Assembly: GCA_949296705.1 (NCBI GenBank)
Contig: CASFOW010000045.1
Coordinates: 4,234 to 68,233 of the forward strand
Direction: 5' to 3'
From: an uncultured bacterium
GTDB lineage: Bacteria > Bacillota_I > Bacilli_A > RF39 > UBA660
DNA length: 64,000 nt
In this document: in pieces, positions 9,781-61,925 of the stretch
Position numbering within the stretch: position 1 is the stretch's first letter
Layout: the number at the start of each line of letters is the position of its first letter
Notes under the pieces: model-generated
Database searches by the model: none
What the model saw: only the letters and a program-made list of their open reading frames with translations
Told to the model about the DNA's origin: nothing
Program-made: the position numbers and the translations under genes

Positions 9781-9835
9781 TCCACATAGTTGTGGATAAA
9801 AAATTTGGACAGGCCATAGAAAGGGGGTGATGAAA

Positions 9836-13596: not shown

Positions 13597-13602
13597 ATAA
13601 GT

Positions 13603-18800: not shown

Positions 18801-19169
18801 ATGGCAAAAACTAATGCATCATATATTAGAGATGATTTAGAAGCCCAATTACGCTCGCAAGGAAAAAATGGTAAGTATTATGATGATTTAGTAAATGATT
18901 ATATTTATTATTTGGGATTAAGAACAAAATTGAAAGAAGATATTAGAATAAAGGGCTTGCGCTACAAGACAACTAATGCCGCTGGAAAAGAAGTCGAAAA
19001 GGCAAATGAAAGTATTGTGAATCTTACTAAAGTTACAACTTTGATGTTAAAGATTCTTAGTGAGCTAAAATTAACAGAACCTATTATTAATCCACCGTCT
19101 AAAAACAATTCATCTTCTAGTATAGATAATAAAAATAAAGTAGAAGATGATTCAGATGATTTGTTGTAA
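18801..19169 (+). CDS. terS: terminase small subunit (P27-family-like)
   Basis: Position immediately 5' of TerL. RBS GGAGAGGTGG then ATG 18801. N-terminus MAKTNASYIRDDLEAQLRSQG resembles the P27 family. Confidence 0.6.
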   Translation: MAKTNASYIRDDLEAQLRSQGKNGKYYDDLVNDYIYYLGLRTKLKEDIRIKGLRYKTTNAAGKEVEKANESIVNLTKVTTLMLKILSELKLTEPIINPPSKNNSSSSIDNKNKVEDDSDDLL

Positions 19170-37724: not shown

Positions 37725-37994
37725 ATGAAAAATGATGAAATGTTAGATTTATGCAAAGAAGTAGTTGTTAATTATTTCAATGAAAATGTTGAAAAGACAG
37801 ATGAATTTAAAATAAATAAGGATAACGTATTCGTTGTATGGTTTAGTAAAACACTACAAAACTTTAAAGCATTAGTAAGTACTACGATTTCAGATGGTAT
37901 GTATTATGAGTTAACTTATAATGGTAACAGGAAAGAATTATATTTGGATGCTTACAAAAAATGGGAAAATAAATGTATTAAGGTAGGTGAGTAA
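37725..37994 (+). CDS. hypothetical protein in the lysis region
   Basis: ORF. Confidence 0.3.
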   Translation: MKNDEMLDLCKEVVVNYFNENVEKTDEFKINKDNVFVVWFSKTLQNFKALVSTTISDGMYYELTYNGNRKELYLDAYKKWENKCIKVGE

Positions 37995-37995
37995 C

Positions 37996-38838
37996 ATGGA
38001 AGCTTTTACATTTGGAATGAAAACAATGCGTATCACTCAAAATTATAGTGGTACAGCATCTCATAAGCCTCATTGGTATAATTCTAAGGACTATGCTGAT
38101 TATCCTATTGATGTTGCCGGAAAAGATGAAAATAGAGATATTTATTATGCTACGGTAGATATGCAAGTTCTAGCTATCAAGGGAAAAGGAAACTCGATGA
38201 CTAATACGATTTGGTTAGTTACTACTGACAAGGTTCAAACTCCCAGTGGTGTTATGAAAGTATTCATGGCTTTAACTCATTGGAACGATAATGACCAATA
38301 TGTTTCTAAACTAAAAGTAGGTAATATCGTTAAAGCCGGTAATCCTATCTGTGAAGAGGGAACAGATGGAGCTACCGCCAATCACTTGCATGTAGTTTAC
38401 GGGAATGCTGATAAGGGATGCGGAGATACTCTTATTCAGAATTCGAATGGTAAGTGGGTATCCTCTGGATATTGCATGAAGCCAGAAGAAATTATGTATG
38501 TAGATAGAGAGTTTACGAATGTAGTAGATACATGTGGGCTAACGTTCCAAGACAAGCCGAAAGAGGTGGTAAACACGTTATTCCTTGGAGAAAAAGGGTG
38601 GTTAGGCTTCGGAGATGAGAGTGAGTCAGTAGGTAAGATATGCCAATTTATGCACGATACTTTTCCTAAATACGGTGAGTGGCTTGGCTTAGATAATGAG
38701 AAAGTTTTAGGCAATTATTATGGTAACATTATCAAGTCATACATCATCGAATTTCAGAAAAGAACAGGCTTGGAATCAGATGGTAACGTTGGGCCTATCA
38801 CTTTAGCAAAATTGAAAGAATTTGGATTTAAAGAATAA
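37996..38838 (+). CDS. endolysin: N-terminal peptidase-like catalytic domain plus C-terminal peptidoglycan-binding (PG_binding_1-like) domain
   Basis: C-terminus KSYIIEFQKRTGLESDGNVGPITLAKL matches the PG-binding repeat. RBS AAGGTAGGTGA before ATG 37996. Last late gene, followed by a terminator. Confidence 0.6.
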   Translation: MEAFTFGMKTMRITQNYSGTASHKPHWYNSKDYADYPIDVAGKDENRDIYYATVDMQVLAIKGKGNSMTNTIWLVTTDKVQTPSGVMKVFMALTHWNDNDQYVSKLKVGNIVKAGNPICEEGTDGATANHLHVVYGNADKGCGDTLIQNSNGKWVSSGYCMKPEEIMYVDREFTNVVDTCGLTFQDKPKEVVNTLFLGEKGWLGFGDESESVGKICQFMHDTFPKYGEWLGLDNEKVLGNYYGNIIKSYIIEFQKRTGLESDGNVGPITLAKLKEFGFKE

Positions 38839-39711: not shown

Positions 39712-39957
39712 CTATCGTGTGTGGATTGATTCTTCAGTAGCAATATCTGTAAGAAGGGCTTTTCCTCGATTATCTGGCATAGTATATCGTTGATTTAAGT
39801 AACGTAAGGCCGCAGCCATTTCTCCATTAGAACCCCCATATTGTGTAATTAGATATTTTGCCATACGTAAGTCTTTTTTCTTAATAGAAATTGGATATTG
39901 TAATCTTTTTTCATATTTCCACATATTAATTTTCCTCCATTTCCCAAGGCCATGCAT
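39712..39957 (-). CDS. cotJC: manganese catalase (CotJC family), N-terminal fragment, truncated by the prophage at attR
   Basis: MHGLGKWRKINMWKYEKRLQYPISIKKKDLRMAKYLITQYGGSNGEMAAALRYLNQRYTMPDNRGKALLTDIATEE matches the CotJC N-terminus. The last 5 codons and the stop are phage-derived. Confidence 0.7.
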   Translation of the reverse strand: MHGLGKWRKINMWKYEKRLQYPISIKKKDLRMAKYLITQYGGSNGEMAAALRYLNQRYTMPDNRGKALLTDIATEESIHTR

Positions 39958-40375
39958 AAGCTTCCCAACTGAATTGATCGTGATTAGATAAAGCGTTAAC
40001 AGTTAGCGGTCCATATTTTTTTTCATAAGCTCTTGTTGCTTCATTGGCCATTTGTTGATAACGATTAAATAAAGCTATCATCTGCGCGTCGTTAGGATAA
40101 ACATCTAAATATAGATTAATTTCATGAGCCGCAAACGATAATTGATCCACATTTAGTAAAAGTTCTGCCTGTTCATTATTTGGTACTAATTTAGTAGGTC
40201 TATAATTTTGATATTGGCGATAAAGACGATCAAATAAATTACCGCGTATAAATCCTTCATATGGTTCTTTTAGGGGCTGATTAAGGCTTGGTGTAGAATT
40301 AGGATTTAGAAATGTTTGTTTAAAAATATCCATTTGTGAACGATCATATTGATCAAAACTAAAATTATTATTCAT
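39926..40375 (-). CDS. cotJB: CotJB-like spore coat protein (start may be internal)
   Basis: C-terminal ~80 aa: NLYLDVYPNDAQMIALFNRYQQ...YGPLTVN...WEAYAWPWE follows the CotJB pattern. Overlaps the cotJC start. Confidence 0.6.
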   Translation of the reverse strand: MNNNFSFDQYDRSQMDIFKQTFLNPNSTPSLNQPLKEPYEGFIRGNLFDRLYRQYQNYRPTKLVPNNEQAELLLNVDQLSFAAHEINLYLDVYPNDAQMIALFNRYQQMANEATRAYEKKYGPLTVNALSNHDQFSWEAYAWPWEMEEN

Positions 40376-40918: not shown

Positions 40919-42031
40919 ATGGAAATGAAGGAATTAATCAATAGTATTGGTAAAAAGAAATTGATCATGATTTTTGGTGGCATTGTTGGTGTGGTTGTCT
41001 TGATCATTGTTTGTTTATTACTATATAATGCTTTTTTTGTAAGCAATACTTATTCTTCAGTAGAGAGTAAAATTGTTAATGCAGCAAAGGAGTATTATGG
41101 TAAGCATCAAAATTTATTACCAAAGAGTCCTAATGATGAAGTTAGTGTAAACAGTACTACTTTAACTTCTAGTGGTTATTTAGGTGATTTGCAAGAAATG
41201 GTTCCGGATGAGGGAGTATCTTGTACCGCAACTGTAACTGTTACTAATGTGAATAATAATTACCGTTATGTTGCTAATTTAAAGTGTGGAGATAAATATC
41301 AAACAGAAACATTTGTAAATCATGTAAAGAGTGTAGAGCAGACTGTTGTGACGGGACAAGGATTATATGATATGAATGGGGAACTTGTTTATCGCGGAGA
41401 AAATCCTAATAATTATATTAAATTTGCTGATAGATTATGGCGAATTGTTAAGTTTGAAAATGATAGTGCAATGTTGATCTTGGATGATAAGTATGCCCGT
41501 TCTGTTTGGGATGATCGCTTTAATGCTGATCGTAATCGCAATGATGGTATTAATGATTATAGTGTCAGTCGAGCTAATGATGCTCTTACGAATTTATATA
41601 ATGGCGAAGATTTATTTAGTGCAAGTGATAAATTATTGATTGTTGCCCATGATTTAGCTATTGGAAAAAGAGGAGAGACGATTCAATATAATGATGGTTC
41701 TGTTGAAAAATCACAAGTATTGGAAGATAGATATATTGGCTTGTTACCATTATATGATTATATTAATGTAAGTTTAGATGAAAATTGTAGCTCAGCATCA
41801 ACTCAATCTTGTTCAAATTATAATTATTTGAACTTGTTAGAGTCTAGTTGGTGGCTATCAACTGGTGATAGTGATACAACTTATAGAGTATACCGTATTG
41901 ATTCTAGCGGAATTATTGGACTTACTAGAGCATCTACTAATTCTTATTTAAGACCGGTTATTTATTTGGCTAAGGATGCAATTTATGTCAGCGGAGATGG
42001 AACTTTTGATAATCCTTATCAAGTAAAATAA
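40919..42031 (+). CDS. membrane-anchored extracytoplasmic protein (hypothetical)
   Basis: N-terminal TM segment LIMIFGGIVGVVVLIIVCLLLY. RBS AAAGGAGAAAT. Confidence 0.5.
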   Translation: MEMKELINSIGKKKLIMIFGGIVGVVVLIIVCLLLYNAFFVSNTYSSVESKIVNAAKEYYGKHQNLLPKSPNDEVSVNSTTLTSSGYLGDLQEMVPDEGVSCTATVTVTNVNNNYRYVANLKCGDKYQTETFVNHVKSVEQTVVTGQGLYDMNGELVYRGENPNNYIKFADRLWRIVKFENDSAMLILDDKYARSVWDDRFNADRNRNDGINDYSVSRANDALTNLYNGEDLFSASDKLLIVAHDLAIGKRGETIQYNDGSVEKSQVLEDRYIGLLPLYDYINVSLDENCSSASTQSCSNYNYLNLLESSWWLSTGDSDTTYRVYRIDSSGIIGLTRASTNSYLRPVIYLAKDAIYVSGDGTFDNPYQVK

Positions 42032-42208: not shown

Positions 42209-42285
42209 GGCGAATATGGTGAAGTGGTTAACACGCCAGATTGTGGCTCTGGTATGCGTGGGTTCGATCCCCACTATTCGCCCCA
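42209..42285 (+). tRNA. tRNA-His (anticodon GTG) with an encoded G(-1) and CCA
   Basis: Cloverleaf: acceptor GCGAATA/TATTCGC with G(-1):C73. Anticodon stem CCAGA/TCTGG, loop TTGTGGC. T-arm GTGGG-TTCGATC-CCCAC. 3' CCA. Confidence 0.8.
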
Positions 42286-42385
42286 GAGTGGAAAAAAGTC
42301 GGAAGACTTATTGATAGAAATCGATTCTTATGAGTCGATTTTTTGTGTTTATTTTTGCTATGATAGTAAAAAATGGAGAGGTAGT

Positions 42386-43222
42386 ATGAAAGAAAAAGAT
42401 TTAGACTCTAGTATGAATCCCTATCAAGAAAAACAAATACCTAAAGGATATATAAAACAATTACAATGGGATATGGCGATAGGATTACAACAAGTAGATA
42501 ATTTAAAACCATCTAAATATCTTGAGCAGATTAGTGAGAAAAATATTTTAGGTGAATTAACAATCAAAGAGGTAGAGCAAAGTTTAAGAGAATATTACAC
42601 CACAAAAGAAAAACAAAATAGTATTAATCATAAGGAATTAGAATGTGACTTTGTATCTATGAGAATCGTTGAATTATTAGATCAAGATAATTTTGAATTA
42701 TCAGTAGATTATCTAAAATATATTCATAAATATTTATTTCAAGATGTTTATGAATTTGCGGGAGAATTTAGAAAAATAGATTTTTCTAAACATGAAAAAA
42801 TATTAAATAATGATTCAGTAGCTTATGGAGACTCTAAAACATTAATAGAATCATTAGAATATGATATTAGTCTAGAAAAAGAGAAAAATTATAAAGATAT
42901 GTCCATTGTAGAAGTGATTAAAAATATTACTGATTTTACATCTAGTATATGGCAAGTACACCCTTTTAGAGAAGGTAACACAAGAACAACAGCAGTATTC
43001 ATAGAAAAATATTTAATTAGTCTAGGATACACTGTAGATAATTCATTATTTAAAGATAAATCAGTATATTTTAGAAATGCATTAGTGAGAAGTAATTATT
43101 TCAATAACTATTTAAATATCAAAGAAGATAAAACATATTTAATTAAATTTTATGAAAATTTGTTATTAGGTAAAAATAATAATTTACATTCAGAAGATTT
43201 AATTGTGAAAGAATTGTTTTAA
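42386..43222 (+). CDS. Fic/DOC-family protein (AMPylation or related nucleotidyl transfer)
   Basis: Fic motif HPFREGNTRT. Start set to ATG 42386 (RBS GGAGAGG), because the track ORF 42224.. runs through the tRNA. Confidence 0.8.
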   Translation: MKEKDLDSSMNPYQEKQIPKGYIKQLQWDMAIGLQQVDNLKPSKYLEQISEKNILGELTIKEVEQSLREYYTTKEKQNSINHKELECDFVSMRIVELLDQDNFELSVDYLKYIHKYLFQDVYEFAGEFRKIDFSKHEKILNNDSVAYGDSKTLIESLEYDISLEKEKNYKDMSIVEVIKNITDFTSSIWQVHPFREGNTRTTAVFIEKYLISLGYTVDNSLFKDKSVYFRNALVRSNYFNNYLNIKEDKTYLIKFYENLLLGKNNNLHSEDLIVKELF

Positions 43223-43238: not shown

Positions 43239-46200
43239 GTGACAATAAGTGAACTGTTAGAAGAATTTAGAAAAATATTTGGTAATGAAAGAGATAAGGG
43301 AACTGCATTTGAAAAATTAATTAAAATGTATTTAGAAAATGAGCCAAAATATATGGCCATATTATCTAATGTTTGGATGTGGAAGGATTTTCCATATAGA
43401 GAAAACGTTGGAGATACAGGTATAGATTTGGTGGCAAAAACTTATGATGGGGATTTTTGGGCAATTCAATGTAAATTTTATGCAGAAAAGCACGAAATAA
43501 CAAAAGGTGATGTTGATACGTTTCTTGCTACATCTTCAAAATACTTTTATATAGATGATAAGAAAATAAATTTTAAATATAGACTAATTGCATCAACCAC
43601 GGATCATTATAATCATATTGCAGAATCCACATTAGAAAATCAAAATCCTCTTGTAGGAAGAATAGGGTTAAATGATTTATTAGAATCGCAAATTGATTGG
43701 AAAAAGTATTCGCTGATAGCACAAAAAGTAGAAATGTTACAAAAGAAAAAACCAAGAGATTATCAAAAAGTAGCTATAAAAAAAGTAATAGAAGGATTTA
43801 GGAGTCATGACCGTGGTAAATTAATAATGGCTTGTGGTACCGGAAAGACATACACTAGTTTAAAAATTGCCGAAAAACAATTAAATGGAAAAGGAAACAT
43901 ACTTTTTTTAGTACCATCAATTGCATTAGCTAGTCAAACATTATCAGAATGGACAGCGCAGTGTGAATACACATTTAACGCTTGTGTAGTTTGTAGTGAT
44001 AATAAAGCATCAAAAGGAGATAATTCAACGGATTTAGGAATTCCTTCTACGACAAACGTAGATAGATTGATAGAATGGTACATTGATTCTAAAAAACTAA
44101 ATAGAGATATGAATTTTATTTTTTCCACATATCAATCTATTGATGTTGTTTCAGAGTTTTCTAAAAAAATGGATATTAATTTTGACTTAATCATTTGTGA
44201 CGAAGCACATAGAACAACAGGAGTTACATTAAGCGATGAAGATGAAAGCTCATTTGTTAAAGTTCACGATAATGCTTTTATTAAAGGAAAAAAAAGATTA
44301 TACATGACTGCAACTCCAAAGATTTATGGCGATGGAGCTAAGGGAAGAGCTAATGAAGTAAATGCAGAGTTATGTTCTATGGATGATGAAAGTATATATG
44401 GTCCAGAATTTCATAAGTTATCTTTTAGTGAAGCAGTTAAACAAGGATTATTAACTGATTATAAAGTGTTGGTATTAGCAGTAGATGAAGAATATGTAAA
44501 AATCGAATTGCAAGATTTATTAAAAGATGAAAATCATGAATTAAAATTAGATGATTCAGTAAAAATAATGGGTTGTTGGAACGGATTATCTAAAATTTCA
44601 ACATGGGATGAAAAAGAAAATTTCTTATCTGATCCTACACCAATGAAAAGGGCAGTTGCATTTTGCAATAGAATAATTGATTCGAAAAAGTTAGTAGAAA
44701 TGTTTAATCTAATTCAGGAACACGTACGCAGTGAATATAGACCTGATAAAGAAAAATTAGTAAAAGTAGATATTAAACATGTAGATGGCTCTTTTAATGC
44801 ATTAGAAAAAAAAGAAAGAATAAACTGGTTAAAAGATGATATTAAAGATGGTGAATGTAGAATACTTACCAATGCAAGATGTTTATCAGAAGGTGTTGAT
44901 GTTCCTGCATTAGATGCGGTAATGTTTCTTAATCCTAGAAGTAGTATGATAGATATTATTCAATCAGTTGGAAGAGTAATGAGAAAAGCAGAAGGGAAAA
45001 AATATGGATATGTAATACTTCCAATTGGTGTTTCAGCATCAGAAGATCCAGATGAGGCATTGAATAATAATGAAAAATACAAACTTGTTTGGGAGGTTTT
45101 GCAAGCTTTAAGAGCTCACGATGATCGCTTTAATAATACAATTAATAAAATAGATTTAAATAAGAAAAAGCCAGATCAAATAGAAGTTATTGGAATAGGT
45201 ACAACAAAAGCAGAAGAAAGAGATAATGGAATGAAGACCGTTAAAGTACAAGATGATATAAAACAAAAAGTACAATTGACTCTTGATTTAAAAACATTTG
45301 ATGAATGGAAAGATTCAATTTATGCTAAGATGGTTAAAAGAGTTGGTTCTAGAATATATTGGGAAATGTGGGCTAAAGATGTAGCAGACATTGCAACGTC
45401 TCATATGAAAAAAATCAAAGAGCTATTAACTACTAATAATCCGAAAATAAAAAAAGCTATTACAGATTTTATCGAAGGATTACATCAAAATTTAAATAAT
45501 TCAATAACAGAAGATGATGCAATAGAAATGCTAGCAGAACACATGATTACTAAACCAGTTTTTAATGCATTATTTGATAAATATGAGTTTGTAAATAACA
45601 ATCCGGTTTCTCAAACAATGCAGAAAATGATAGATATTTTAGACAAACAATTTACAGAAGAAGAAAGAAAAAAATTAGATGAATTTTACGAAAGTATAAA
45701 GGAAAGAGCACAAGGAATTGACAACGCAGCAGGTAAGCAAAAAATAATTCTTGAATTATATGAAAAGTTTTTTAAAACGGCATTACCAAAAGAAGTTGAA
45801 AAATTAGGGATAGTATATACTCCAACAGAATGCGTTGATTTTATAATCAATAGTGTAGAATATTTGATGAAAAAAGAGTTTGGTAAGAGTTTATCAGATC
45901 ATAGAGTACACATAATAGATGGTTTTACAGGAACGGGAACTTTCATAGTTAGATTGTTGCAGAGTGGGATTATTAAACCACAAGATTTATTGTATAAATA
46001 TACCAATGATATTCATGCCAATGAAATAGTATTATTAGCATATTATATTGCAGCTATTAATATTGAAGAAACATTTCATGAATTAAGTAAAAGTCAAGAA
46101 TATATTCCATTTGACGGTATTGTATTAACGGATACTTTTCAACTATATGAGGACAGCAACGAGCATGAATGGACAAAAAATGTAAATGAATTGGCTTTAC

Positions 46201-48011
46201 CACAAAATAGTGAAAGAGCACTAAAACAAAGAGAACTACCAATAACTGTTTGTATTGGGAATCCACCATATAATAATAAACAAAAAGATGCGAATGGGCA
46301 ATCACAAAATTTACATTATCCAAATTTAGAGAAAAGAATTGCCGAGACATATATGGCAGGAACTAATTCTCAAAATAAAAATTCACTATATGATTCGTAC
46401 ATTAAAGCATTTAGATGGGCTTCAGATAGATTACAAAAATCAAATGGGATAATTGCATTTATTACCAATAATAGTTGGCTGGACGGCAATGCATTTACAG
46501 GCTTTCGCAAATCGATTCATGATGAATTTAATTCTATTTATGTAGTTAATCTTCGGGGATCAATAAGAGGAAGATCAAAAGAAGATGTTGAAAAAGAAGG
46601 GCAAAATATTTTTAATATTATGACAGGTGTTGCAGTATGTTTCTTAGTAAAAAATGCATCGTCAAAAGAAAAAAATATATATTATTATGCCATGGAAGAC
46701 TATTTGACAAAGAACAAAAAACTTGAATTATTAAACAATAATTATATTGCAAATATTACATTTAAAAAAATAATACCAGATGAATATAATGACTGGATAA
46801 ATAAGAGAAATACTAACTTTAACAAATTCACTTTAATTGGAGATAAAAATAATAAATCTAGAGCTACTGTGTTTAAGAGTGTTTATTCAAATGGATTGAA
46901 GACACAGCGCGATTGTTGGTGCTATAATAGTAATTTAGAAAAACTGAAACTAAATATTGAGAAAACAATATGCTATTATAATAATCAGATAGATTGTAAC
47001 AAAAATTCTCATGACACTTCAATAATAGATACAAAAAAATTCAGTTGGACGAGCAATACTTTTAGAGATTTAGATAAAAAAGTTAAATATAATATAAACG
47101 ATGTTGAGTATCGTGATGTTCTTTATAGACCATTTTTCAAGCAGCATGTAGCTTTTTATAAACCATTAAACGAAAGACAATATAAAATTCCGGGATTGTT
47201 TCCTAAAAAGAATATAAATAATATGTTAATTTGTATTCATGGAATAAGTAGTAAAAAAGATTTTTCTGCATTAATCACAAATATTATTCCTGATTTGAAT
47301 CTAATGGATGGTGGAGCTCAATCATTTCCAATCTACTATTATGAAAACGATAGTACAACTTTATTTTCACAAATTGAAGATGGATATGCAAAACATAGTG
47401 CCATTAATAAATCATTCATAAATAAAATAAATAAAATATACAATGCAAGTATAAATGAAGAAGAACTTTTCTATTTCATTTATGGATTATTTCATTCAAA
47501 AGACTATATTATTAAATTTGGTATAAATTTAAAAAAATCTTTACCAAGAATTCCTATAATTAGTAAATATGAAGATTTTGTTGCCATAAGCAAAGCCGGA
47601 GAAAAGTTAGCTAATTTACATTTAAATTATGAACAAATAAAGCCATATTCTAGATGTAAAATATTTATGTATCCAGGTGCAGATTATAAGGTAACAAAAA
47701 TGAAATTTGGGAAAAGTAAAAATAATAATAAGGATAAAACTATTATCGAGTATAATGACAAAATAACAATTTCTAATATACCAGCAAAAGCATATGAATA
47801 TATAGTTAATGGAAAATCAGCTATTGAATGGATTATGGAGAGATATGCAGTTACAGTAGATAATAAAAGTGGAATTGAGAACGACCCAAATGATTGGTGC
47901 AAAGAAGTAAATGATGAAAAATATATCTTTAATTTATTATTAAGAATTATTAATGTTTCTATTCAAACGGTAGATATTGTTAATTCATTGCCAAAAATAG
48001 ATTTTGATTAA
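43239..48011 (+). CDS. Type ISP restriction-modification enzyme (single polypeptide: Mrr-like nuclease, SF2 DEAH helicase-like ATPase, gamma-class N6-adenine methyltransferase, TRD), LlaGI-like
   Basis: N-terminal Mrr-like GIDLVAKTYDGDFWAIQCKFY. Helicase motif I ACGTGKT, motif II ICDEAHR, motif VI QSVGRVMR. MTase motif I IIDGFTGTGTF, motif IV CIGNPPY. 1590 aa. GTG start with RBS AGGAGG. Confidence 0.8.
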   Translation: MTISELLEEFRKIFGNERDKGTAFEKLIKMYLENEPKYMAILSNVWMWKDFPYRENVGDTGIDLVAKTYDGDFWAIQCKFYAEKHEITKGDVDTFLATSSKYFYIDDKKINFKYRLIASTTDHYNHIAESTLENQNPLVGRIGLNDLLESQIDWKKYSLIAQKVEMLQKKKPRDYQKVAIKKVIEGFRSHDRGKLIMACGTGKTYTSLKIAEKQLNGKGNILFLVPSIALASQTLSEWTAQCEYTFNACVVCSDNKASKGDNSTDLGIPSTTNVDRLIEWYIDSKKLNRDMNFIFSTYQSIDVVSEFSKKMDINFDLIICDEAHRTTGVTLSDEDESSFVKVHDNAFIKGKKRLYMTATPKIYGDGAKGRANEVNAELCSMDDESIYGPEFHKLSFSEAVKQGLLTDYKVLVLAVDEEYVKIELQDLLKDENHELKLDDSVKIMGCWNGLSKISTWDEKENFLSDPTPMKRAVAFCNRIIDSKKLVEMFNLIQEHVRSEYRPDKEKLVKVDIKHVDGSFNALEKKERINWLKDDIKDGECRILTNARCLSEGVDVPALDAVMFLNPRSSMIDIIQSVGRVMRKAEGKKYGYVILPIGVSASEDPDEALNNNEKYKLVWEVLQALRAHDDRFNNTINKIDLNKKKPDQIEVIGIGTTKAEERDNGMKTVKVQDDIKQKVQLTLDLKTFDEWKDSIYAKMVKRVGSRIYWEMWAKDVADIATSHMKKIKELLTTNNPKIKKAITDFIEGLHQNLNNSITEDDAIEMLAEHMITKPVFNALFDKYEFVNNNPVSQTMQKMIDILDKQFTEEERKKLDEFYESIKERAQGIDNAAGKQKIILELYEKFFKTALPKEVEKLGIVYTPTECVDFIINSVEYLMKKEFGKSLSDHRVHIIDGFTGTGTFIVRLLQSGIIKPQDLLYKYTNDIHANEIVLLAYYIAAINIEETFHELSKSQEYIPFDGIVLTDTFQLYEDSNEHEWTKNVNELALPQNSERALKQRELPITVCIGNPPYNNKQKDANGQSQNLHYPNLEKRIAETYMAGTNSQNKNSLYDSYIKAFRWASDRLQKSNGIIAFITNNSWLDGNAFTGFRKSIHDEFNSIYVVNLRGSIRGRSKEDVEKEGQNIFNIMTGVAVCFLVKNASSKEKNIYYYAMEDYLTKNKKLELLNNNYIANITFKKIIPDEYNDWINKRNTNFNKFTLIGDKNNKSRATVFKSVYSNGLKTQRDCWCYNSNLEKLKLNIEKTICYYNNQIDCNKNSHDTSIIDTKKFSWTSNTFRDLDKKVKYNINDVEYRDVLYRPFFKQHVAFYKPLNERQYKIPGLFPKKNINNMLICIHGISSKKDFSALITNIIPDLNLMDGGAQSFPIYYYENDSTTLFSQIEDGYAKHSAINKSFINKINKIYNASINEEELFYFIYGLFHSKDYIIKFGINLKKSLPRIPIISKYEDFVAISKAGEKLANLHLNYEQIKPYSRCKIFMYPGADYKVTKMKFGKSKNNNKDKTIIEYNDKITISNIPAKAYEYIVNGKSAIEWIMERYAVTVDNKSGIENDPNDWCKEVNDEKYIFNLLLRIINVSIQTVDIVNSLPKIDFD

Positions 48012-48026
48012 GAAAGGAGACCGTTG

Positions 48027-49217
48027 ATGAGTAAAAATACAAAAGATTTTTTCAAAAAGAAAAAAGGATGGTCAAAAGTAAAAGATGAAATACTTGCTTG
48101 CTATTTAAAGCCTTATTTTACCAAGATTCAATATACAAAAAAGAAAATTATTTATATTGATGGATTTGCAGGGGTAGGAATCTTTGAAGATGGGACATTA
48201 GGTTCTCCTTTAATAGCATATAATATTGCCAAAGAAGTAGGTACTGAATTAAATATAGAACTGATATTTATTGAGCAAAAATTTTCTAATGAATTATCTA
48301 ATAATGTTAAAAATTATAATAATTGCTGTGTTATTTCTGGAAACTATGAAGATAATATTGTAGATTTGATAAACAAAAATGAGGGAAATAATATTTTTGT
48401 TTATGTCGATCCTTTTGGAATTAAAAATATTAATTTTTCGTATTTTGAAAAATTAAATTCAAGTTCTTTGAATTCTGCAGAATTTTTGATGAATTTAAAT
48501 AGTTTTGGTTTTATTAGAGAAGGATGTCGTTTACTAAAAGCTGATTTACATGATGTACAGGTGGATGAAGAATTTGAAGAGTTTATGGATGAAAACCAAG
48601 AGTTTAAAAAGACTAATACTATTGAACATATGAATTCAATAGCTGGTGGAGATTATTGGCAAGAAATAATACAAGAACATCGTGATGGAAAAATAAATGG
48701 ATATGAAGCAGAAAAAAGATTTGTGGAATTATATTGTACAAAGATGAAAGAATTTGGAAAATTTAAATATGTAATTAATATCCCCATAAGAACAAAAGCA
48801 GGGAGTCCTCCTAAATATAGAATGGTATATGCGACAAATCACGCTGATGGTGTTATCTTAATGAATGATAATATGTGTAAGAGATTTGATGAGTTATTAA
48901 ATATTCAAACGGGAGGATCAGGTTCATTATTTCAAGAAAATTCTGAAAATGAAATTATTGATTTTAATAAGGTTCAATCTAATCTTTTGTCTTTATTAGA
49001 TACTAAATATATAAATTACTTTGATTTGATTGCTACATATATTGATCATTTTGAAATTATAAAAACAAAATACTTAAATGAACAACTACGCTCTTTAGAA
49101 TCAGAACGAAAAATCATCATTACAAGAATTCCACCAACTACTTCCACTGGCAAAGCCTCTAAATTTATATCCCCAGGAAAAAATCAAAAAACATTAATTA
49201 GATTGGAAGTGTCCTAG
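48027..49217 (+). CDS. TcmP-like protein (three-Cys-motif partner family, from memory); degenerate MTase-like fold
   Basis: YIDGFAGVGIF (D-x-F-A-G-x-G) and VYVDPFG (DPP[YF]-like). The adjacent downstream ORF carries a C-x3-C-x3-C motif. Confidence 0.4.
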   Translation: MSKNTKDFFKKKKGWSKVKDEILACYLKPYFTKIQYTKKKIIYIDGFAGVGIFEDGTLGSPLIAYNIAKEVGTELNIELIFIEQKFSNELSNNVKNYNNCCVISGNYEDNIVDLINKNEGNNIFVYVDPFGIKNINFSYFEKLNSSSLNSAEFLMNLNSFGFIREGCRLLKADLHDVQVDEEFEEFMDENQEFKKTNTIEHMNSIAGGDYWQEIIQEHRDGKINGYEAEKRFVELYCTKMKEFGKFKYVINIPIRTKAGSPPKYRMVYATNHADGVILMNDNMCKRFDELLNIQTGGSGSLFQENSENEIIDFNKVQSNLLSLLDTKYINYFDLIATYIDHFEIIKTKYLNEQLRSLESERKIIITRIPPTTSTGKASKFISPGKNQKTLIRLEVS

Positions 49218-49218
49218 T

Positions 49219-49995
49219 ATGTCAGAAGAAAAATGCATAAAAAGTATCACTAGAAAATCAATGCTTTATAAAACAGGAGTAGAATATGGAGACTATACTG
49301 CTAATTATGTTTTAGGATGTTCTCATGGATGTAAATATCCATGCTATGCATTTGCTTTAGCAAAAAGATTTGGAACAGTAAAAACATATGAGGATTGGAT
49401 ACAACCCGCAATAGTTTCTAATACAATAGAACTACTAAATAAAGAATTACCAAAATTAAAGGATAAAATAGAAAATGTTCAGTTATGTTTTACTACAGAC
49501 CCCTTTATGAATGGATATGAAGATGTGACAGAATTGTCATTAAAAGTAATAAAAAAAATTAATGAGTATAATATTCCATGCCACATTTTAACTAAAGGAA
49601 AATTACCTGAAAAATTACTAAAAACCTCTAAAATAAATTGGTATGGTATTACTTTAGTGTCATTAGATGAAGAATTTAGAAAGAATTATGAGCCTGGAAC
49701 ATGTGAATATATGGAGAGAATAGAAGCTCTAAAAAAACTTCATGATAAAGGATTTAAAACATGGGTAAGTATAGAACCTTATCCAACGCCCAATATCATT
49801 AATCAGAATTTAAAAGAAATATTAAATAAAATTGATTTTGTGGATAAAATTATATTTGGTAGATGGCATTATAATAAAAAAATATCAGAGTATAAAGAAT
49901 TAAAAAAATTTTATAATAGATGTGCTGACTATGTTGAAAATTTTTGCCAAGAAAAGAATATTCAAGTACATATAAAAAATAAAACAAAAAGTTGA
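49219..49995 (+). CDS. three-cysteine-motif protein (C-x3-C-x3-C), possibly a non-canonical radical-SAM-like enzyme
   Basis: GCSHGCKYPCYAF near the N-terminus. Translationally coupled to the upstream gene (2-nt gap). Confidence 0.4.
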   Translation: MSEEKCIKSITRKSMLYKTGVEYGDYTANYVLGCSHGCKYPCYAFALAKRFGTVKTYEDWIQPAIVSNTIELLNKELPKLKDKIENVQLCFTTDPFMNGYEDVTELSLKVIKKINEYNIPCHILTKGKLPEKLLKTSKINWYGITLVSLDEEFRKNYEPGTCEYMERIEALKKLHDKGFKTWVSIEPYPTPNIINQNLKEILNKIDFVDKIIFGRWHYNKKISEYKELKKFYNRCADYVENFCQEKNIQVHIKNKTKS

Positions 49996-50103
49996 AAATA
50001 ATTTGATAAATATATATAATATATTAAAGAAAAGGCGCTAGTACAGGCTTTATAGTTTGTATTGCGTTTTTTTGTTAATGTAGTGAAAGTGTGGTAGTAT
50101 AGT

Positions 50104-52086
50104 ATGATTAAAAGTGATAAAACAAAATTAGAATTAATTAGACTTGAAGGTATACGAAACTTAATAGTTAATAAAATTAATGAGGAACAATTGATTGAAA
50201 TTATAAAACAGGAATTTAATTTCGATTCAAAAAAGTGCTATGAAATATTAAAAAAATTAAATAGAAGCCAGTTAATAAAAATAATTGATAAAAGCAATAC
50301 TATTAGTTCAAATGATATTGATGAAACATATGAACAATATAGGTATGGTCTAAAGCCAGGATTTACTATTTTTACTTTTTTAAATTGTGAGTTAAGTGAA
50401 ATAAATAGTAATGAAATAACTAAAAAAATAGAGAATAAATTAGTTAACCTTCACTATTTTGAAGATTCTAAATTCAAATCTCTTACTTTAAAGAATATAA
50501 TGAAAATAAGAGATAATACATTTGAGTTTTCTTTTACGTATTTAAGTAAATACACATATATTAATGATTCCGATGAACCCGATTATATATATGAATTAAA
50601 AGATTGTTTTGTGTGGATAAATTTAAAAAATAATTTTTTAGCAATAAAAAATTGCCCAAATGATATTCAAAATAAACTTTTAAACTTACTTTCTAATATT
50701 TTAAATGTATCTTTATATAATATAAAAATTACCAAAAAGTTAATTAATGAAGTATTTAACGGAAAAATAAAAAAAGGTACTTTTATAAAACCAGATGCAA
50801 CTGATGAAGAAGTTGCTAAAATAATAATTGCAGATGAAGAATTGACTAAAAAAAGGATATATCAAGACAGCGTAAGCAGTTACGATATGTCCAATACTTT
50901 CTTGGATGAACAATTAGATGATAGTACTAAAAGCACACTAGGAATAAATTGTAAATCTGGTAAAATTTATTTAACAAAAAATGTAAACGCAACACAATTT
51001 AGAAACTGGAGTATAAATAACATAAATAAAATTATAAATTATCTTAATGATATTAATAATTGTAAAGAAAAAGATATTTTTCAATCAAGAAATATATTAT
51101 CAAATACGAATTATAGTAGTGATGAGAAAAACATTATTGAAAATATTTGTTACAATATATTCATGTATATAAATTCAGGAGAAACATCCTTCTTAATGCA
51201 AAAAGATGTTATGGTTATTAAAAACAAATTAAGGAGTAAGTTTTATACCCCTTTATTTGGTTTCTGCGATGTTTGTAAAGAAGAAACACAATTATTTTGC
51301 CCAAAATGTAATAGAAGTAATTTGAAATTAATAAAGAATGGTATTTATTGTATGGAATGTGATGAAAACATTTTGACTTTTTTGTGTGATGAAGGTCATA
51401 ATATATATGGTAATAATTTAGTTGATATAATAAGACTAATTCCACATCGAGAATTTATAGATGAAATTAATGGTTATCTTTTGACTAACTTTGGAGTAAG
51501 ATTAGAAGGAAGTTTTGTCTTGGAAAAAAATCATTTAAGCATTCATAAATATTCATCAGGAGAGATTCTTGATTATACAAAAATAGAGGAATTTAAAAAA
51601 ATTCATGAAATCAATAGTATAAATATTAAAGACCAACTAGATAAATATAATAAGATTAAAGAAAAATGTAAGAAGTGTAGTAATGATGAATGCTCTATAT
51701 GCATTAACAATACAAATTTATGTATAATGAAGTTATTTATAGGTTTTGGTAATTATAGGCCAAGCCCACATCAAGGTCAAGAGTTCGGCGATGTTAATTT
51801 TAAAATTACATATGAAGGAAAAGAATATAATTTTGTCGGAATTGCGAAAAGCAAACCTAAGTCAGGTATTTTAAATTTGTCGGATCAAGCCAGTAGGGAA
51901 ATGATACAGCAAATATTGATGATGAGTAGGGATAAAAGAGTTGATGTGATAGGTGCAATATGTCCTGCAAAATTTCATGATCAATTGATACAAGAATTAT
52001 ATTATTTAGCTAGAATAACACAGGTAAAAATTATAATTTTGGATGATATTTTTATGAGTAAACTTTTAACTTATCGAAATATATAA
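50104..52086 (+). CDS. large hypothetical protein with central zinc ribbons and a possible C-terminal PD-(D/E)xK-like nuclease region
   Basis: CDVCKEETQLFCPKCN...CMECDEN...CKKCSNDECSIC cysteine clusters. C-terminus ...GDVNFKITYEGKEYNFVGIAKSK. No RBS; the start is uncertain. Confidence 0.4.
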   Translation: MIKSDKTKLELIRLEGIRNLIVNKINEEQLIEIIKQEFNFDSKKCYEILKKLNRSQLIKIIDKSNTISSNDIDETYEQYRYGLKPGFTIFTFLNCELSEINSNEITKKIENKLVNLHYFEDSKFKSLTLKNIMKIRDNTFEFSFTYLSKYTYINDSDEPDYIYELKDCFVWINLKNNFLAIKNCPNDIQNKLLNLLSNILNVSLYNIKITKKLINEVFNGKIKKGTFIKPDATDEEVAKIIIADEELTKKRIYQDSVSSYDMSNTFLDEQLDDSTKSTLGINCKSGKIYLTKNVNATQFRNWSINNINKIINYLNDINNCKEKDIFQSRNILSNTNYSSDEKNIIENICYNIFMYINSGETSFLMQKDVMVIKNKLRSKFYTPLFGFCDVCKEETQLFCPKCNRSNLKLIKNGIYCMECDENILTFLCDEGHNIYGNNLVDIIRLIPHREFIDEINGYLLTNFGVRLEGSFVLEKNHLSIHKYSSGEILDYTKIEEFKKIHEINSINIKDQLDKYNKIKEKCKKCSNDECSICINNTNLCIMKLFIGFGNYRPSPHQGQEFGDVNFKITYEGKEYNFVGIAKSKPKSGILNLSDQASREMIQQILMMSRDKRVDVIGAICPAKFHDQLIQELYYLARITQVKIIILDDIFMSKLLTYRNI

Positions 52087-52408
52087 TAATTAAAATAAAA
52101 ATATACTTGCAATCTTCTTCAAATAGAGCTAACATACACTACAAGGAATCGATTTTTATCTAATATTTTTAAAAGATGCTATTCATCGCCCGTTATCATT
52201 AGAGTCGAATAGCTGAAATTTTTTCCAAAACATTTGTTTTTTTCTTTTATTGTGTTATACTATGACCAATTAAAGAAATAAAGTTAGGTGAGTGAGCTTT
52301 TCTTAGTATAAGTAATAATCTACTAATTTTGGTTGATTTAATTGCTCGTGTTCTTAAGATAAGAACATTAAAATTTAATATTATTTATTGTTATGGGAGG
52401 TAGATAGT

Positions 52409-53335
52409 ATGGATAGTCGATTAAATAACATGTTAAATGACTTTTTAAAAAAATCTGATGTTAAAACAGAAGAGGAACTTAATGAAAAATTACAAGAATT
52501 TGCTCAAAAATATAATGCTGATGAGTTAGAGTATGAAGAAACTGATTTAGATAAGGCATACGCACTATTGGAAAAAGCACAAAACGCTATTACAGAGAAG
52601 AAAGCTTTAAAATTAGCTAAAGAAGCTTATGAATTTTGCTCAGCTTGTTTTGATGCTTTACTATTTCAAGTAAATTTAGAAGAAGATCCTCTAAAAAGAG
52701 ATGAATTATTAGCTGAAGGATTGGCTAAGGAAAAGGAAAGACTACAAAAAGAAGGATTTTTTGACAAAGATAGTATAGGAATATTCTATGGTATTTTTGA
52801 AACTCGTCCTTATATACGGGGATTATATTTAAGAACAACTAATTTACTTGATGATGGTAAATATACACAAGGTATTGAATCTTGTAAAGAAATTTTGAAA
52901 CTAAATAATAATGATAATACAGGGGTTCGTTATTTGTTGATGGCTACTTATGCATTATTAGAAAATGAAAAAGAAGCTTTAAAATTATATAAACAATATC
53001 CTGAAGAAAATTTAGAAATGCTATTTCCATTATTTGCTTTATATTATAAATTAGGTAATGATGAAAAGGCTCATCAATATTTGGATAAAATTTTCAAGAT
53101 TAATCCTTATTTTGTTACTTTCTTGGAAAATAGCTATGATGATGATTTAGAAGATGATGATTTAATTCCAGGTTGTTATACAGTAGGTCGTTCTTCTGAA
53201 GTCTTATACTATATGGCTACTTATGGCTTTTTGATTTTTACTATGAATTCTTTTGAAGAATATGCTTTAGCTTATTACTATAAAAAAAACAAGAAAACTT
53301 CTAAAAATAAGCATAAAAAAGGAAAGTTGAGTTAG
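52409..53335 (+). CDS. alpha-helical TPR-like protein (hypothetical)
   Basis: RBS GGGAGGTAG before ATG 52409. Repetitive helical segments. A palindrome operator-like site lies upstream. Confidence 0.45.
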   Translation: MDSRLNNMLNDFLKKSDVKTEEELNEKLQEFAQKYNADELEYEETDLDKAYALLEKAQNAITEKKALKLAKEAYEFCSACFDALLFQVNLEEDPLKRDELLAEGLAKEKERLQKEGFFDKDSIGIFYGIFETRPYIRGLYLRTTNLLDDGKYTQGIESCKEILKLNNNDNTGVRYLLMATYALLENEKEALKLYKQYPEENLEMLFPLFALYYKLGNDEKAHQYLDKIFKINPYFVTFLENSYDDDLEDDDLIPGCYTVGRSSEVLYYMATYGFLIFTMNSFEEYALAYYYKKNKKTSKNKHKKGKLS

Positions 53336-53792
53336 CAGTTACCATAGAAAAAGTATAAAGATTACTGTAAATTATCAGTAGTCTTTTTGTTTTAATTAAT
53401 ATGATGGGTAATTATGATATATAGTTAGTTGTGGATCTAATATTAATGAATGTTAAATATGTAAAAAGGAAAAACAAGTGAGAATAATATTACCGCTCTC
53501 AAGAAATAACAGAAAATATTTGTTACAAAAAGGATGGCCTACTTTATTTATAGTGCATTCTCTTACCTGTTTTTTTGACGAATCATCTAATTTTGTGTAT
53601 AATTCAATTATATTATTCCTTATCGGGATATCCATGTTTATATTACAATACAGCTTAAAACTAGAGATAAATCTCAGAAATTATAATTGGTAGTATTAGG
53701 AAGGTGTTAAGGTTGAAAAAATAATTAAAATTTCAACTCAATTTGTGCCTTTCAGAGAACCGAAAGGACGTAGAAAGGAATGTTAGTTAAAA

Positions 53793-55370
53793 ATGAAAAT
53801 GTTAGAAGAAATTAAGCACTATGGAAAAGAAGGCGTGTATGATTCTTATCAACGAATTGTACCAACCATCAAGGACTATGAGAAAATAACGAAAACTAAA
53901 ATGCTTCAGGCTATATATAATGAATATCAAGATTATCATAATATTATTGATATTTGTACAGGACGTGAATTAAAATTTTTAAAACAGGTTTTATCCGGCA
54001 AGGTTGTATCTTTAACTCTTGAACAATTACGCGATGATAATTATGTAGATGAATATCTTTGGGAAAAAAGAAATTTAAGAGGAAAGTTTTTAGTTTGCTA
54101 TGATTATGATAGTATGAATCTCGTTGTACCCGAAGAGATTCTCCCTTTAGTCCAAAAAGCTGTTAAAAATGTTAACTGGAAAGAAAAAGATAAAAAAGAC
54201 AAACTAAATGAATTCTTAGTGGGTTTTTCTAAAACGATGGGTTCTATTATAGTGGATATATTACTTGGACTAGGCACACAAGTAACGGGAATGTCCGCTG
54301 AAGAAGTCTACAAACATATTTGCTATGACCGAGTATTTAACTATTATTTTTTCATGATAGAAGAGTATATCAAAAGTATGAATACAAAAAAGTTAGCGGT
54401 TATTGATTATGATTTTTTTGTTGATAAAAAGGAGTTAGACGCACAACGAAAAAAATTTGCAATGGCAGGAACTAGACCGGTTGATTTGAATATTTTCCGC
54501 ACCATTTTTTATCACGACTTTGATATTCATAATGCTAAGATCAAAAAGTTTCTTACTGAATTAGGTGATTTACAGATTTTTGAGGGTAATGTGTTATGGT
54601 TGGTAAAAAAATATGCCATGTTAAATAAAGATCGTACACCTTTAAAACAAGCAATCCAAAGTATTCCTGTATTAAAGGATGAAGATTTAACTTCTTTCTT
54701 TAAAGCATTGGATGAAGCTATGGATGAAATGCCATCAGGTGCTTTAAATGGTTTTACTCCTAATGAAGCTAAACAAAAGTTACAAGAACGTCAAGAAAGA
54801 GAAGCAAGCAAAAAGAAAAGTTATCAAAAACAAAAGGGTGCTTGTTTAACTGAAAAAGATACTAAGTTGTTCTATAAATTATATTTTGGTTTATTGGATT
54901 TTACTAATCAAAAATATAAGATTAAACAAGACTATAAGATTTATAAGCAATTAGGTTTAGATCCTCATGAACTAATAGACATTATAAATAAATTCTGGAG
55001 TAATAAAGAACAATTAATTATGGAGTTTAAGATGGCGAATCCTTATCATTTTTCTAAAGAAGAATTAAAGATTGTCGATCAATTTAGAAAGGGAATTAGA
55101 GATATTTATATTATTGCTAAGTTTGAATTAGAGTATACAGGTTTCCTTACTCAAGATAAAGTATATATGGTTAAAGGGATTAATGATAATTTAGATAATA
55201 TTATATCCTATAAAGAATTACCACAGGCTGTTTTTACTACGATTCTTCCCTTTAAAAATGTTCTCATTTATGATGGTATTTTTTCTGCTTTTCCTATCGA
55301 TCTAAAAAATAGTTATGGGAAAGAAATTGAAGAGGATTATAGTCGATTAATGAAATATTATCATTTATAG
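53793..55370 (+). CDS. hypothetical protein (525 aa)
   Basis: Long ORF with a short poly-A tract before the ATG. No recognisable motif. Confidence 0.45.
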   Translation: MKMLEEIKHYGKEGVYDSYQRIVPTIKDYEKITKTKMLQAIYNEYQDYHNIIDICTGRELKFLKQVLSGKVVSLTLEQLRDDNYVDEYLWEKRNLRGKFLVCYDYDSMNLVVPEEILPLVQKAVKNVNWKEKDKKDKLNEFLVGFSKTMGSIIVDILLGLGTQVTGMSAEEVYKHICYDRVFNYYFFMIEEYIKSMNTKKLAVIDYDFFVDKKELDAQRKKFAMAGTRPVDLNIFRTIFYHDFDIHNAKIKKFLTELGDLQIFEGNVLWLVKKYAMLNKDRTPLKQAIQSIPVLKDEDLTSFFKALDEAMDEMPSGALNGFTPNEAKQKLQERQEREASKKKSYQKQKGACLTEKDTKLFYKLYFGLLDFTNQKYKIKQDYKIYKQLGLDPHELIDIINKFWSNKEQLIMEFKMANPYHFSKEELKIVDQFRKGIRDIYIIAKFELEYTGFLTQDKVYMVKGINDNLDNIISYKELPQAVFTTILPFKNVLIYDGIFSAFPIDLKNSYGKEIEEDYSRLMKYYHL

Positions 55371-58242: not shown

Positions 58243-58308
58243 AGAATGAAAACAAAAAAGGAAACAAATAAAAAACTAGTAGAAAAACAATCAGAAGGAG
58301 GTTTTATA

Positions 58309-61769: not shown

Positions 61770-61803
61770 AAAGTAGGAATTTAGAATTTTTCGTAAAGAA
61801 AAG

Positions 61804-61840
61804 GTTTCGAAATAGTTTGTTCGAAATGGCTTTTCTTTTT
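61804..61840 (+). terminator. candidate rho-independent terminator
   Basis: Stem tttcgaa/ttcgaaa with an 8-nt loop, followed by a T-rich tract. Confidence 0.4.
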
Positions 61841-61925
61841 TCTTTTCCTTTTTTTGCTTAGTTTTTCTCTTTTGGCCTTTTGACAATGTTTATTTTTTCT
61901 TTTATGGTGGTTATGGTGATTATGA

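Follow-up and report, generated by a model that had tools for sequence, protein, structure and literature searches.

What do a methyltransferase-like protein and a small cysteine-rich enzyme do behind a restriction gene? This question is raised by a 64,000-nucleotide (nt) stretch of DNA from an uncultured bacterium of the RF39 lineage (contig CASFOW010000045.1, positions 4,234 to 68,233 of the forward strand; hereafter the window), in which a single-chain Type ISP restriction-modification (R-M) enzyme is followed by a protein of the TcmP family, by a 258-amino acid (aa) protein with three clustered cysteine residues, here called rSAM for radical S-adenosylmethionine (SAM) enzyme, and by a 660-aa protein with zinc ribbons. 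A first-pass annotation had delimited these four open reading frames (ORFs), and all four are found with the same limits (Table 1). Our comparison of loci suggests that TcmP and rSAM form a unit of a conserved enzyme and an exchangeable partner that accompanies many kinds of restriction system and travels with mobile elements, and we tentatively propose that this unit modifies DNA bases.

A conserved radical-SAM gene with an exchangeable partner

The first-pass annotation assigned the 397-aa protein to the TcmP family, and the TIGR04474 (TcmP) model indeed matches it at 124.8 bits against a cutoff of 53. The gene lying directly 5' of rSAM on the same strand is a TIGR04474 gene in 79 of 82 non-redundant loci, and TcmP occupies the same position in 65 of the 68 loci from IMG/VR. 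The protein therefore belongs to the TcmP family and the pair is conserved as neighbors elsewhere, as had been anticipated. Gaps between the two genes range from -16 to +34 nt, a spacing suggestive of translational coupling, and in two proteins, P0299 (634 aa) and P0319 (592 aa), each a singleton cluster, TcmP and rSAM are found in one chain.

The two partners evolve in contrasting ways. Across 77 loci, two rSAM proteins are at the median 64.5% identical (minimum 52.6%), whereas an alignment over 150 residues is obtained for just 56% of TcmP pairs, with a median identity of 26%. TcmP falls into at least five subfamilies whose common part is the N-terminal ~150 residues only; beyond these, the helical insert and the C-terminal winged helix are hypervariable. 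Identity between rSAM proteins is nearly the same whether they go with the same TcmP subfamily (65.1%) or with different ones (64.4%), and in 30 of the 77 loci the closest rSAM relative is paired with a different TcmP subfamily. When the window is compared with locus L014, the Fic, ISP, and rSAM proteins are 53%, 66%, and 74% identical, respectively, but TcmP is only 23% identical, and L001 behaves likewise; the middle gene has therefore been exchanged inside a conserved Fic-ISP-TcmP-rSAM operon. A conserved catalytic gene with a hypervariable, swappable partner is the pattern of specificity subunits or of arms-race sensors. As a separate observation, loci L111, L115-L118, L125, L128, L130-L133, L137, L156, and L170 carry two successive TcmP-like genes of ~379 and ~289 aa before one rSAM gene.

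By the definition of the family, the three-Cys partner of TcmP is a PF07505 (DUF5131) protein. The pair of TIGR04474 and PF07505 ("phage Gp37/Gp68") resembles the one described here in that TcmP lies immediately 5' of the three-Cys protein and in that its occurrence is sporadic and mobile. It differs in the partner, which is a DUF5131 protein there and a Radical_SAM/SplB-like protein with a CX3CX3C motif in the window.

TcmP has a predicted methyltransferase-type fold with conserved motifs

An AlphaFold model of TcmP built from 40 homologues (predicted local distance difference test score 86.5, predicted template modeling (TM) score 0.84) has an RlmJ-like class-I methyltransferase fold with a helical insert over residues 1 to ~300, followed in the last ~90 residues (~310-396) by a small helix-strand domain of the winged-helix type. 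The closest solved fold is that of RlmJ, the 23S rRNA m6A2030 methyltransferase. A TcmP profile gave marginal results against the PDB sequences, in which motif I, the GSP element, and the DP motif align with 2oo3 and the DPxF region aligns with an RsmD-like protein; the sequence similarity of TcmP to RlmJ (6qe5) and to its Legionella homologue 2oo3 is non-significant (E 0.12). Unlike these proteins, TcmP has its helical insert elsewhere, an added C-terminal winged helix, an obligatory radical-SAM neighbor, and DP[YF] at motif IV, where RlmJ-type methyltransferases have DPPY. The BFVD fold library returned only generic methyltransferase matches (TM score at most 0.33), and PHROGs holds no family for TcmP.

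The methyltransferase-like motifs of TcmP had been described as degenerate, which is not borne out: the regions of DGFAGVG (aa 46-52) and DPFG (aa 129-132) instead hold the most conserved positions of the family. Among 82 partners from all subfamilies, the near-invariant positions are K20, Y27, D46, and G52 (motif I), [DE]84 at the end of strand 2, which is the position of the ribose-binding acid, and D129-P130-[YF]131. D46/G52, [DE]84, and D129-P130-[YF]131 are kept in 78-80 of ~80 partners despite identities to the window TcmP of only 13-47%. These positions would correspond to the SAM-binding and base-pocket sites of amino-methyltransferases, one proline short of (D/N)PP(Y/F).

rSAM belongs to a SplB-like lineage

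The cysteine cluster of rSAM, CSHGCKYPC at aa 34-42, is invariant in 32 homologues. When the three-Cys partner was checked against the DUF5131 and radical-SAM models, it failed the former (PF07505, 23.7 bits, under the gathering score of 28.9) and passed the latter (Pfam Radical_SAM, PF04055, 47.7 bits against a gathering score of 29.5, aa 32-203). Radical-SAM enzymes typically hold a [4Fe-4S] cluster with a CX3CX2C motif, cleave SAM reductively, and have a partial TIM barrel. SPL (PF20903) reached 18.4 bits, under its threshold of 27. The models for Rv2578c (59.6 bits, cutoff 430) and PA0069 (52.7 bits, cutoff 360) match partially, over the radical-SAM core, and the rSAM_mob_pairB ("mobile pair B") model also gives a partial match.

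We searched 1.84 billion cluster representatives exhaustively with HMMER for relatives of rSAM. Among the best 150 representatives, 85 have CX3CX3C (C-x-H-x-C-x-[YF]-P-C) and 22 have CX3CX2C (C-x-H-x-C-x-Y-C), while the other 43, many of them short or partial, have neither motif; the first-pass annotation was thus right to call the spacing noncanonical. The CX3CX2C sister clusters are 38-51% identical to rSAM, and a phage relative and a PA0069 protein have the canonical Cys spacing together with the T-[TD]-D-P signature in common with rSAM. Both this signature and G-C-x-H-G-C-x-Y...C-[YF]-A are common to the PA0069 protein, the phage relative, and rSAM. CX3CX3C therefore represents a one-residue (Pro) insertion within an otherwise typical SplB-like radical-SAM lineage. 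rSAM differs from the SplB-like families in scoring far below their cutoffs (360-430 bits), in its length of only 258 aa, in the extra Pro before the third Cys, and in having TcmP always alongside. SplB-like radical-SAM enzymes are tied to the SOS response and DNA repair (PMC3765255).

Homologues of rSAM form more than 7000 clusters at 90% identity, and none of the top 120 falls below 63% identity to it. A scan of species-representative genomes gave at least 587 confirmed rSAM-family stretches (587 of the 600 returned), and the hosts include Bacillota, Spirochaetes, Akkermansia, Coriobacteriia, Cloacimonadales, and one proteobacterial metagenome-assembled genome; 71 viral contigs in IMG/VR carry the gene as well. 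Few close relatives were found by tblastn in cultured phages and plasmids, the PHROGs matches are to families of unknown function only, and the family profile found no radical-SAM match among all PDB sequences even at E 10. The protein is thus abundant and unusually conserved across phyla, yet we found no published function for it. Two fusions occur: P0300 joins rSAM to a HIRAN domain, and P0346 joins a canonical-motif relative to a Sigma70_r4 helix-turn-helix (HTH) domain.

The pair accompanies many kinds of restriction system

Co-occurrence of the pair with R-M genes, a check proposed in the first-pass annotation, was counted over 81 species-level loci. A restriction gene lies directly beside the pair in 22 loci and within five genes of it in at least 36. 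All 22 adjacent restriction genes are on the same strand as the pair, with a median gap of 20.5 nt and 21 of the 22 gaps below 100 nt, whereas the other neighbors are on the same strand in 103 of 134 cases, at a median distance of 85 nt. The restriction systems that adjoin the pair are of about eight kinds, including Types I, IIG (MmeI, Eco57I), IIS (FokI), III, ISP, and IV (GmrSD) and C5-methyltransferase systems. Type III Mod and Res genes follow directly 3' of the pair in 11-12 loci, often with a SNF2-HEPN protein after them, and HsdR/HsdM of Type I are also among the neighbors; a Type ISP gene is a neighbor in 4 of the 81 loci. Further neighbors are a reverse transcriptase with an SLFN-type helicase, AAA_21, GmrSD, and SNF2-HEPN proteins, and a Mob_Pre relaxase is present in 19 loci.

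No TcmP subfamily is confined to one kind of restriction system, each occurring beside many, and the ISP-linked pairs use three subfamilies. A test for co-variation between the TcmP subfamilies and the types of restriction system found none, and a specific physical partnership with the neighboring enzyme was rejected on this ground. The pair therefore keeps company with restriction systems in general and is carried along by mobile elements; it is not an accessory of the Type ISP enzyme, which only 4 of 81 loci have as a neighbor.

A phage contig (L162, positions 4292-13901) carries, in order, MetK (SAM synthetase), HNH, a 373-aa orphan, TcmP (283 aa), rSAM, a small ORF, TerL, the portal, the prohead protease, and the capsid gene. 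The 373-aa gene 5' of TcmP was considered as a further TcmP-like gene and rejected.

Two arrangements of the neighborhood may be recorded here. A divergent pair of an M78-peptidase gene and an HTH_26 regulator recurs at the head of the operon and is widespread in viral contigs: in L032, L054, L080, L083, L086, and many IMG/VR loci (L110-L157), the order is M78 peptidase (~640 aa, divergent), HTH_26, TcmP, rSAM, and then variable cargo, either Type III Mod/Res, in some cases joined by SNF2-HEPN_Swt1, or GmrSD or other genes. The whole resembles a regulated cassette with an exchangeable payload. In L010-L013, an HTH/MTaX1/C5-methyltransferase set, the pair, a 252-aa protein, a DEAD helicase, and a 271-aa protein are all co-oriented.

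A proposed role for the pair

Based on these findings, we propose that TcmP and rSAM constitute a two-subunit, SAM-dependent DNA base-modifying module that provides an added epigenetic/anti-restriction layer. This is our preferred reading, to which we would give not quite an even chance. TcmP would pick the nucleic-acid (DNA) target and present, or itself methylate, a flipped base; in complex with TcmP, rSAM would perform 5'-deoxyadenosyl-radical chemistry on that base, yielding a DNA modification that is costly in SAM; and mobile elements, phages, and defense islands would carry the modification as an extra layer beside restriction systems. We infer that the two proteins act together from their coupling, their near-obligate adjacency, and the possible fusions. 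That DNA would be the substrate is suggested by the link of SplB-like enzymes to the SOS response and repair, the HIRAN and HTH fusions, the winged-helix tail of TcmP, and the restriction neighborhood. The SAM synthetase and packaging genes beside the pair in the phage and the small mobilizable carriers would also fit a role in DNA modification. If this proposal is true, the modification target is expected to change with TcmP subtype.

This scheme recalls Mom of phage Mu, an anti-restriction DNA hypermodification, and the multi-gene DNA modification systems Dnd and Dpd. The likeness, one of function only, lies in carriage by phages or mobile elements, in the presumed cost in SAM or another cofactor, and in the position near packaging or restriction genes; none of these systems is homologous to TcmP-rSAM. 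In a more specific form of the proposal, which we regard as doubtful, TcmP-rSAM would be a programmable radical-SAM enzyme for DNA hypermodification that makes a base not yet described, with TcmP as the exchangeable specificity/methyltransferase subunit and rSAM as the invariant catalyst, and would serve as an anti-restriction or self-marking shield, while the 660-aa protein would represent a second, unrelated class of nuclease that trails restriction systems.

Several observations weigh against the DNA-modification proposal. No recognized restriction gene lies within five genes of the pair in 45 of the 81 loci. Where the pair does reside with Type IV GmrSD and complete R-M systems, there is no obvious need for an extra modification of the host. 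The phage evidence comes from three related contigs, L162 and the similarly arranged L160 and L161, and the P0299 and P0319 fusions could be frameshift artifacts. RlmJ, the best structural match of TcmP, is an rRNA enzyme, with which an RNA target is compatible, and the PADLOC candidate defense systems PDC-M41 and PDC-M30 are related TcmP/three-Cys pairs, a classification that would suit an effector as much as a modifying role. The searchable literature on TcmP, DUF5131, PF07505, PDC-M41/M30, and COG1533 holds incidental mentions only and no functional study of the pair, in keeping with the remark in the first-pass annotation that the pair has no established function.

The main rival, which we consider unlikely but by no means negligible, is a stand-alone anti-phage defense in which TcmP is a fast-evolving sensor of a phage cue. 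Here rSAM, as the effector, would damage nucleic acid or produce a nucleotide that is toxic or antiviral, and the pair would lie near restriction genes merely through the general clustering of defense genes. Weak partial matches, judged without curated cutoffs, of TcmP to PDC-M30A (E 7.9e-13) and PDC-M41A (E 6.1e-9) and of rSAM to PDC-M41B (E 2.7e-6) in PADLOC are consistent with it, as are the island context of the window (Fic/PDC-S72, ISP, and then TerB, a BrxC/D-like ATPase, and helicases) and the reverse transcriptase/SLFN-type helicase, AAA_21, GmrSD, and SNF2-HEPN neighbors; a single hypervariable partner is typical of arms-race sensors, and in S. meliloti a TcmP gene adjoins the Hna defense helicase (PMC12445080). 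Conservation, however, is highest in the methyltransferase motifs of TcmP, which is unexpected for a pure sensor, and the adjacent restriction genes are always co-oriented at ~20 nt, tighter than other neighbors. The pair is also part of a phage core genome, where it stands after MetK/HNH and before the terminase, and is carried by small Mob_Pre elements; in such places DNA marking is the more usual reading, and the searchable literature yielded no experiment on PDC-M41 or PDC-M30.

Modification of rRNA or tRNA is improbable. Here TcmP would act like RlmJ, and rSAM like RlmN/Cfr or TYW1, to alter translation, for example in antibiotic resistance or in blocking phage takeover. Class-I methyltransferases are known to work with radical-SAM enzymes in modifying rRNA and tRNA, and the RlmJ fold, a faint TYW1 match in one canonical-motif relative, and the presence of the pair on mobilizable elements accord with this, but the HIRAN and HTH fusions and the winged helix of TcmP point to DNA, the radical-SAM families closest to rSAM are SplB-like and have links to DNA repair, the neighbors are DNA restriction systems rather than resistance genes, and so extreme a variability of the partner is hard to square with an invariant rRNA target. 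Somewhat less probable again is the repair or reversal of DNA lesions, of the spore-photoproduct-lyase kind, after damage from restriction, transfer, or sporulation: the weak similarity to SPL, Rv2578c, and PA0069, the SOS link of SplB-like enzymes, a HIRAN fusion that suggests recognition of DNA ends or damage, and a host that is apparently a spore former, since CotJB is encoded nearby, are set against the failed SPL model (18.4 < 27 bits), the lack of an evident need for a hypervariable, swappable methyltransferase-like partner, and a patchy mobile distribution and operon linkage to restriction genes that are unlike housekeeping repair. A dedicated Type ISP accessory, which would tune modification or guard against anti-restriction proteins, is essentially excluded. 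Its appeal comes from the 12-15-nt gap behind the ISP gene, with no terminator, and from the recurrence of ISP-TcmP-rSAM with ISP orthologues that are 66%, 66%, and 45% identical (L001, L014, and L065, respectively), but it would leave unexplained the scarcity of ISP neighbors (4 of 81 loci), the pairs beside Types I, IIG, IIS, III, and IV and C5-methyltransferase systems or beside no restriction gene at all, and the use of three TcmP subfamilies by the ISP-linked pairs, which shows no co-variation with the enzyme.

TcmP was beforehand an annotated but functionally uncharacterized family. What appear to be new here are the RlmJ-like fold modeled for it, in which catalytic-type motifs are conserved, a CX3CX3C radical-SAM partner outside DUF5131, the joining of a constant engine to an interchangeable partner, the operon attachment to about eight kinds of restriction system, and the phage arrangement with SAM synthetase. 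Should the DNA-modification proposal prove true, DNA epigenetics and the conflict of restriction and anti-restriction would gain a radical-SAM branch, and a retargetable DNA-modifying enzyme might become available.

The Type ISP enzyme and the transcription units

The first gene of the four was described in the first-pass annotation as encoding a LlaGI-like chain of 1590 aa with an Mrr nuclease, DEAH motifs, and NPPY, and our domain analysis agrees. Pfam finds, in order, Mrr_cat_2 (34-160), ResIII/DEAD (170-361), Helicase_C, ISP_coupler (707-831), and Type_ISP_C (1214-1566), and the motifs GTGKT (aa 200), DEAH (aa 321), DGFTGTG (aa 894), and NPPY (aa 1008; 46260-46271) are present; the parts are thus an Mrr nuclease, an SF2 DEAH motor, a coupler, a gamma-type N6-adenine methyltransferase, and a target-recognition domain. 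PADLOC REase_MTase_IIG matches at 2008 bits, and phmmer aligns the protein with LlaBIII (4xqk) at 1283.6 bits over residues 3-1588 and with LlaGI (5ffj) at 1116.2 bits over the full length. The domain order is identical to that of LlaBIII/LlaGI, with no architectural difference, and it is a conventional, self-sufficient Type ISP enzyme of an already-known kind, a group defined biochemically by translocation driven by ATP and by cleavage when two enzymes collide; what sets the window lineage apart is the Fic gene 5' and the TcmP-rSAM pair 3' of the ISP gene.

Because GGAG sits 7-8 nt 5' of ATG 48027, this codon is more likely the start of TcmP than TTG 48024, and the gap from the ISP gene would then be 15 nt rather than the 12 nt counted from TTG. 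The gap between TcmP and rSAM is 1 nt (TAG-T-ATG). Neither spacing in the first-pass annotation (12 and 2 nt) is thus retained, the second being 1 nt and the first probably 15 nt, but its suggestion that the compact spacing reflects co-transcription remains plausible for ISP-TcmP-rSAM: there is no convincing plus-strand terminator between 42343 and 49995, and the order recurs in L001, L014, and L065. From the terminator-free run to the end of rSAM and the promoter-like site before the 660-aa gene, the likely units are Fic-ISP-TcmP-rSAM and, separately, the 660-aa gene.

The 660-aa protein

In its predicted structure (predicted local distance difference test score 86.8), the 660-aa protein has an RdgC/CENP-N-like domain of the DNA-binding type at ~aa 80-330 and a C-terminus with a restriction-endonuclease-like fold. 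The first reading of this protein, with zinc ribbons and a possible PD-(D/E)xK-like C-terminus, is supported by this fold and by conserved Cys pairs, although the acidic residue classically found two positions ahead of the lysine is absent. The zinc-ribbon pairs are C388/C391, C399/C402, and C416/C419, plus C428/H432, and a second Cys cluster consists of C522/C530/C533/C540; by position these form three clusters, at 51265-51360 and 51667-51702 plus C428/H432 and C540. The conserved C-terminal block comprises H556, E560, D563, K582, E599, and Q603 (E560-Q603 at 51781-51912), and since the acidic residue is missing, the assignment of catalytic residues is tentative.

No profile library that we searched matched the protein, whose family has 55 clusters, all full length. 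Its homologues are the last gene of a co-oriented restriction cassette in seven independent contexts, and the TcmP/rSAM pair is present in none. They follow a IIG enzyme; Type I with Abi_alpha and GmrSD; DndB-E with HNH; Type I with AbiEi/Eii; a Type I HsdR (a 92%-identical homologue); or two C5 methyltransferases with HNH_2. In L176 the 660-aa gene stands just before an HTH_36/serine-recombinase module, the slot that TcmP-rSAM takes in L006/L007. Because it has its own promoter-like site and is never adjacent to the pair elsewhere, the 660-aa gene appears to be a unit separate from the pair, with which it would share the habit of trailing restriction systems; the protein is probably an independent, DNA-targeting nuclease. 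The family is thus a second, fully unannotated candidate nuclease that trails restriction systems. The backbone shared by L006/L007 and L176 runs from TnpV through the restriction cassette to HTH_36, a tiny ORF, and a large serine recombinase.

Genomic setting

Starting at tRNA-His, the window carries a defense island in which the Fic gene, the ISP gene, the TcmP/rSAM pair, the 660-aa gene, a tetratricopeptide-repeat (TPR) protein, and a 525-aa orphan are followed by a TerB/ATPase/helicase block (Table 1). The mechanically called Fic ORF (42224-43222, 332 aa) starts within tRNA-His, and the true start is probably ATG 42387; a plus-strand terminator-like hairpin (42316-42343) lies after tRNA-His and just 5' of the Fic gene, and L014 has a 53%-identical Fic orthologue directly 5' of its ISP gene. 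Downstream of tRNA-His we found no tRNA-derived direct (att) repeats that would bound the island, only repeats at chance level. A prophage with terminase, portal, capsid, tape measure, and endolysin genes fills ~6-39 kb of the window (~5900-39500). It stops before CotJB (~39.9 kb), and the idea that the region is prophage cargo was rejected, as the four genes lie outside. In a megablast comparison with deposited phages, neither 40.5-56.5 kb nor 17-40 kb of the window found a match.

Table 1. Features of the window, in order of position.
Feature	Position	Strand	Remarks
Large serine recombinase, prophage	5939-7456	-	
Terminase, prophage	19147-20823		
Tape measure, prophage	26736-29978		
Endolysin-like gene, prophage	37987-38838		
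CotJB gene	39926-40375	-	just past prophage end
tRNA-His (GTG)	42210-42285	+	ARAGORN and sequence; left edge of island; overlapped by mechanical start of ORF 42224
Fic-domain protein	42387-43222	+	Pfam Fic 48.4 bits; PADLOC PDC-S72 E 1.7e-81; first gene of Fic-ISP-TcmP-rSAM unit
Type ISP restriction-modification enzyme, 1590 aa	43239-48011	+	Pfam, PADLOC, and LlaBIII/LlaGI matches; motifs
TcmP, 396 aa (397 from TTG 48024)	48027-49217	+	motif I DGFAGVG 48159-48179; DPFG 48408-48419
SplB/COG1533-like radical-SAM enzyme, 258 aa	49219-49995	+	C34-x3-C38-x3-C42 49318-49344; TTDP 49492-49503
Promoter-like site TTGAAA-17-TATAAT (11/12)	49992-50020	+	consensus match only; 108-nt spacer before 660-aa gene
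660-aa protein	50104-52086	+	RdgC/CENP-N-like domain, Zn ribbons, C-terminal restriction-endonuclease-like domain

To the right of the 660-aa gene, 52388-55370 holds the TPR protein (315 aa), a terminator-like hairpin after its gene (53357-53386), and the 525-aa protein, which has no family match. The co-oriented block at 56584-63707 encodes a TerB_N/TerB_C protein, a BrxC/BrxD-like ATPase (541.8 bits), a DEAD/Lhr-like helicase, and a UvrD-type helicase, and is probably a further defense system of this island. Left of the prophage integrase, 1234-5313 encodes an Mbeg1-like protein (231.8 bits) and then a 918-aa AAA/STAND-like ATPase, and 40919-42031 encodes a membrane-anchored protein of 370 aa that matches only DUF6273, and that faintly.

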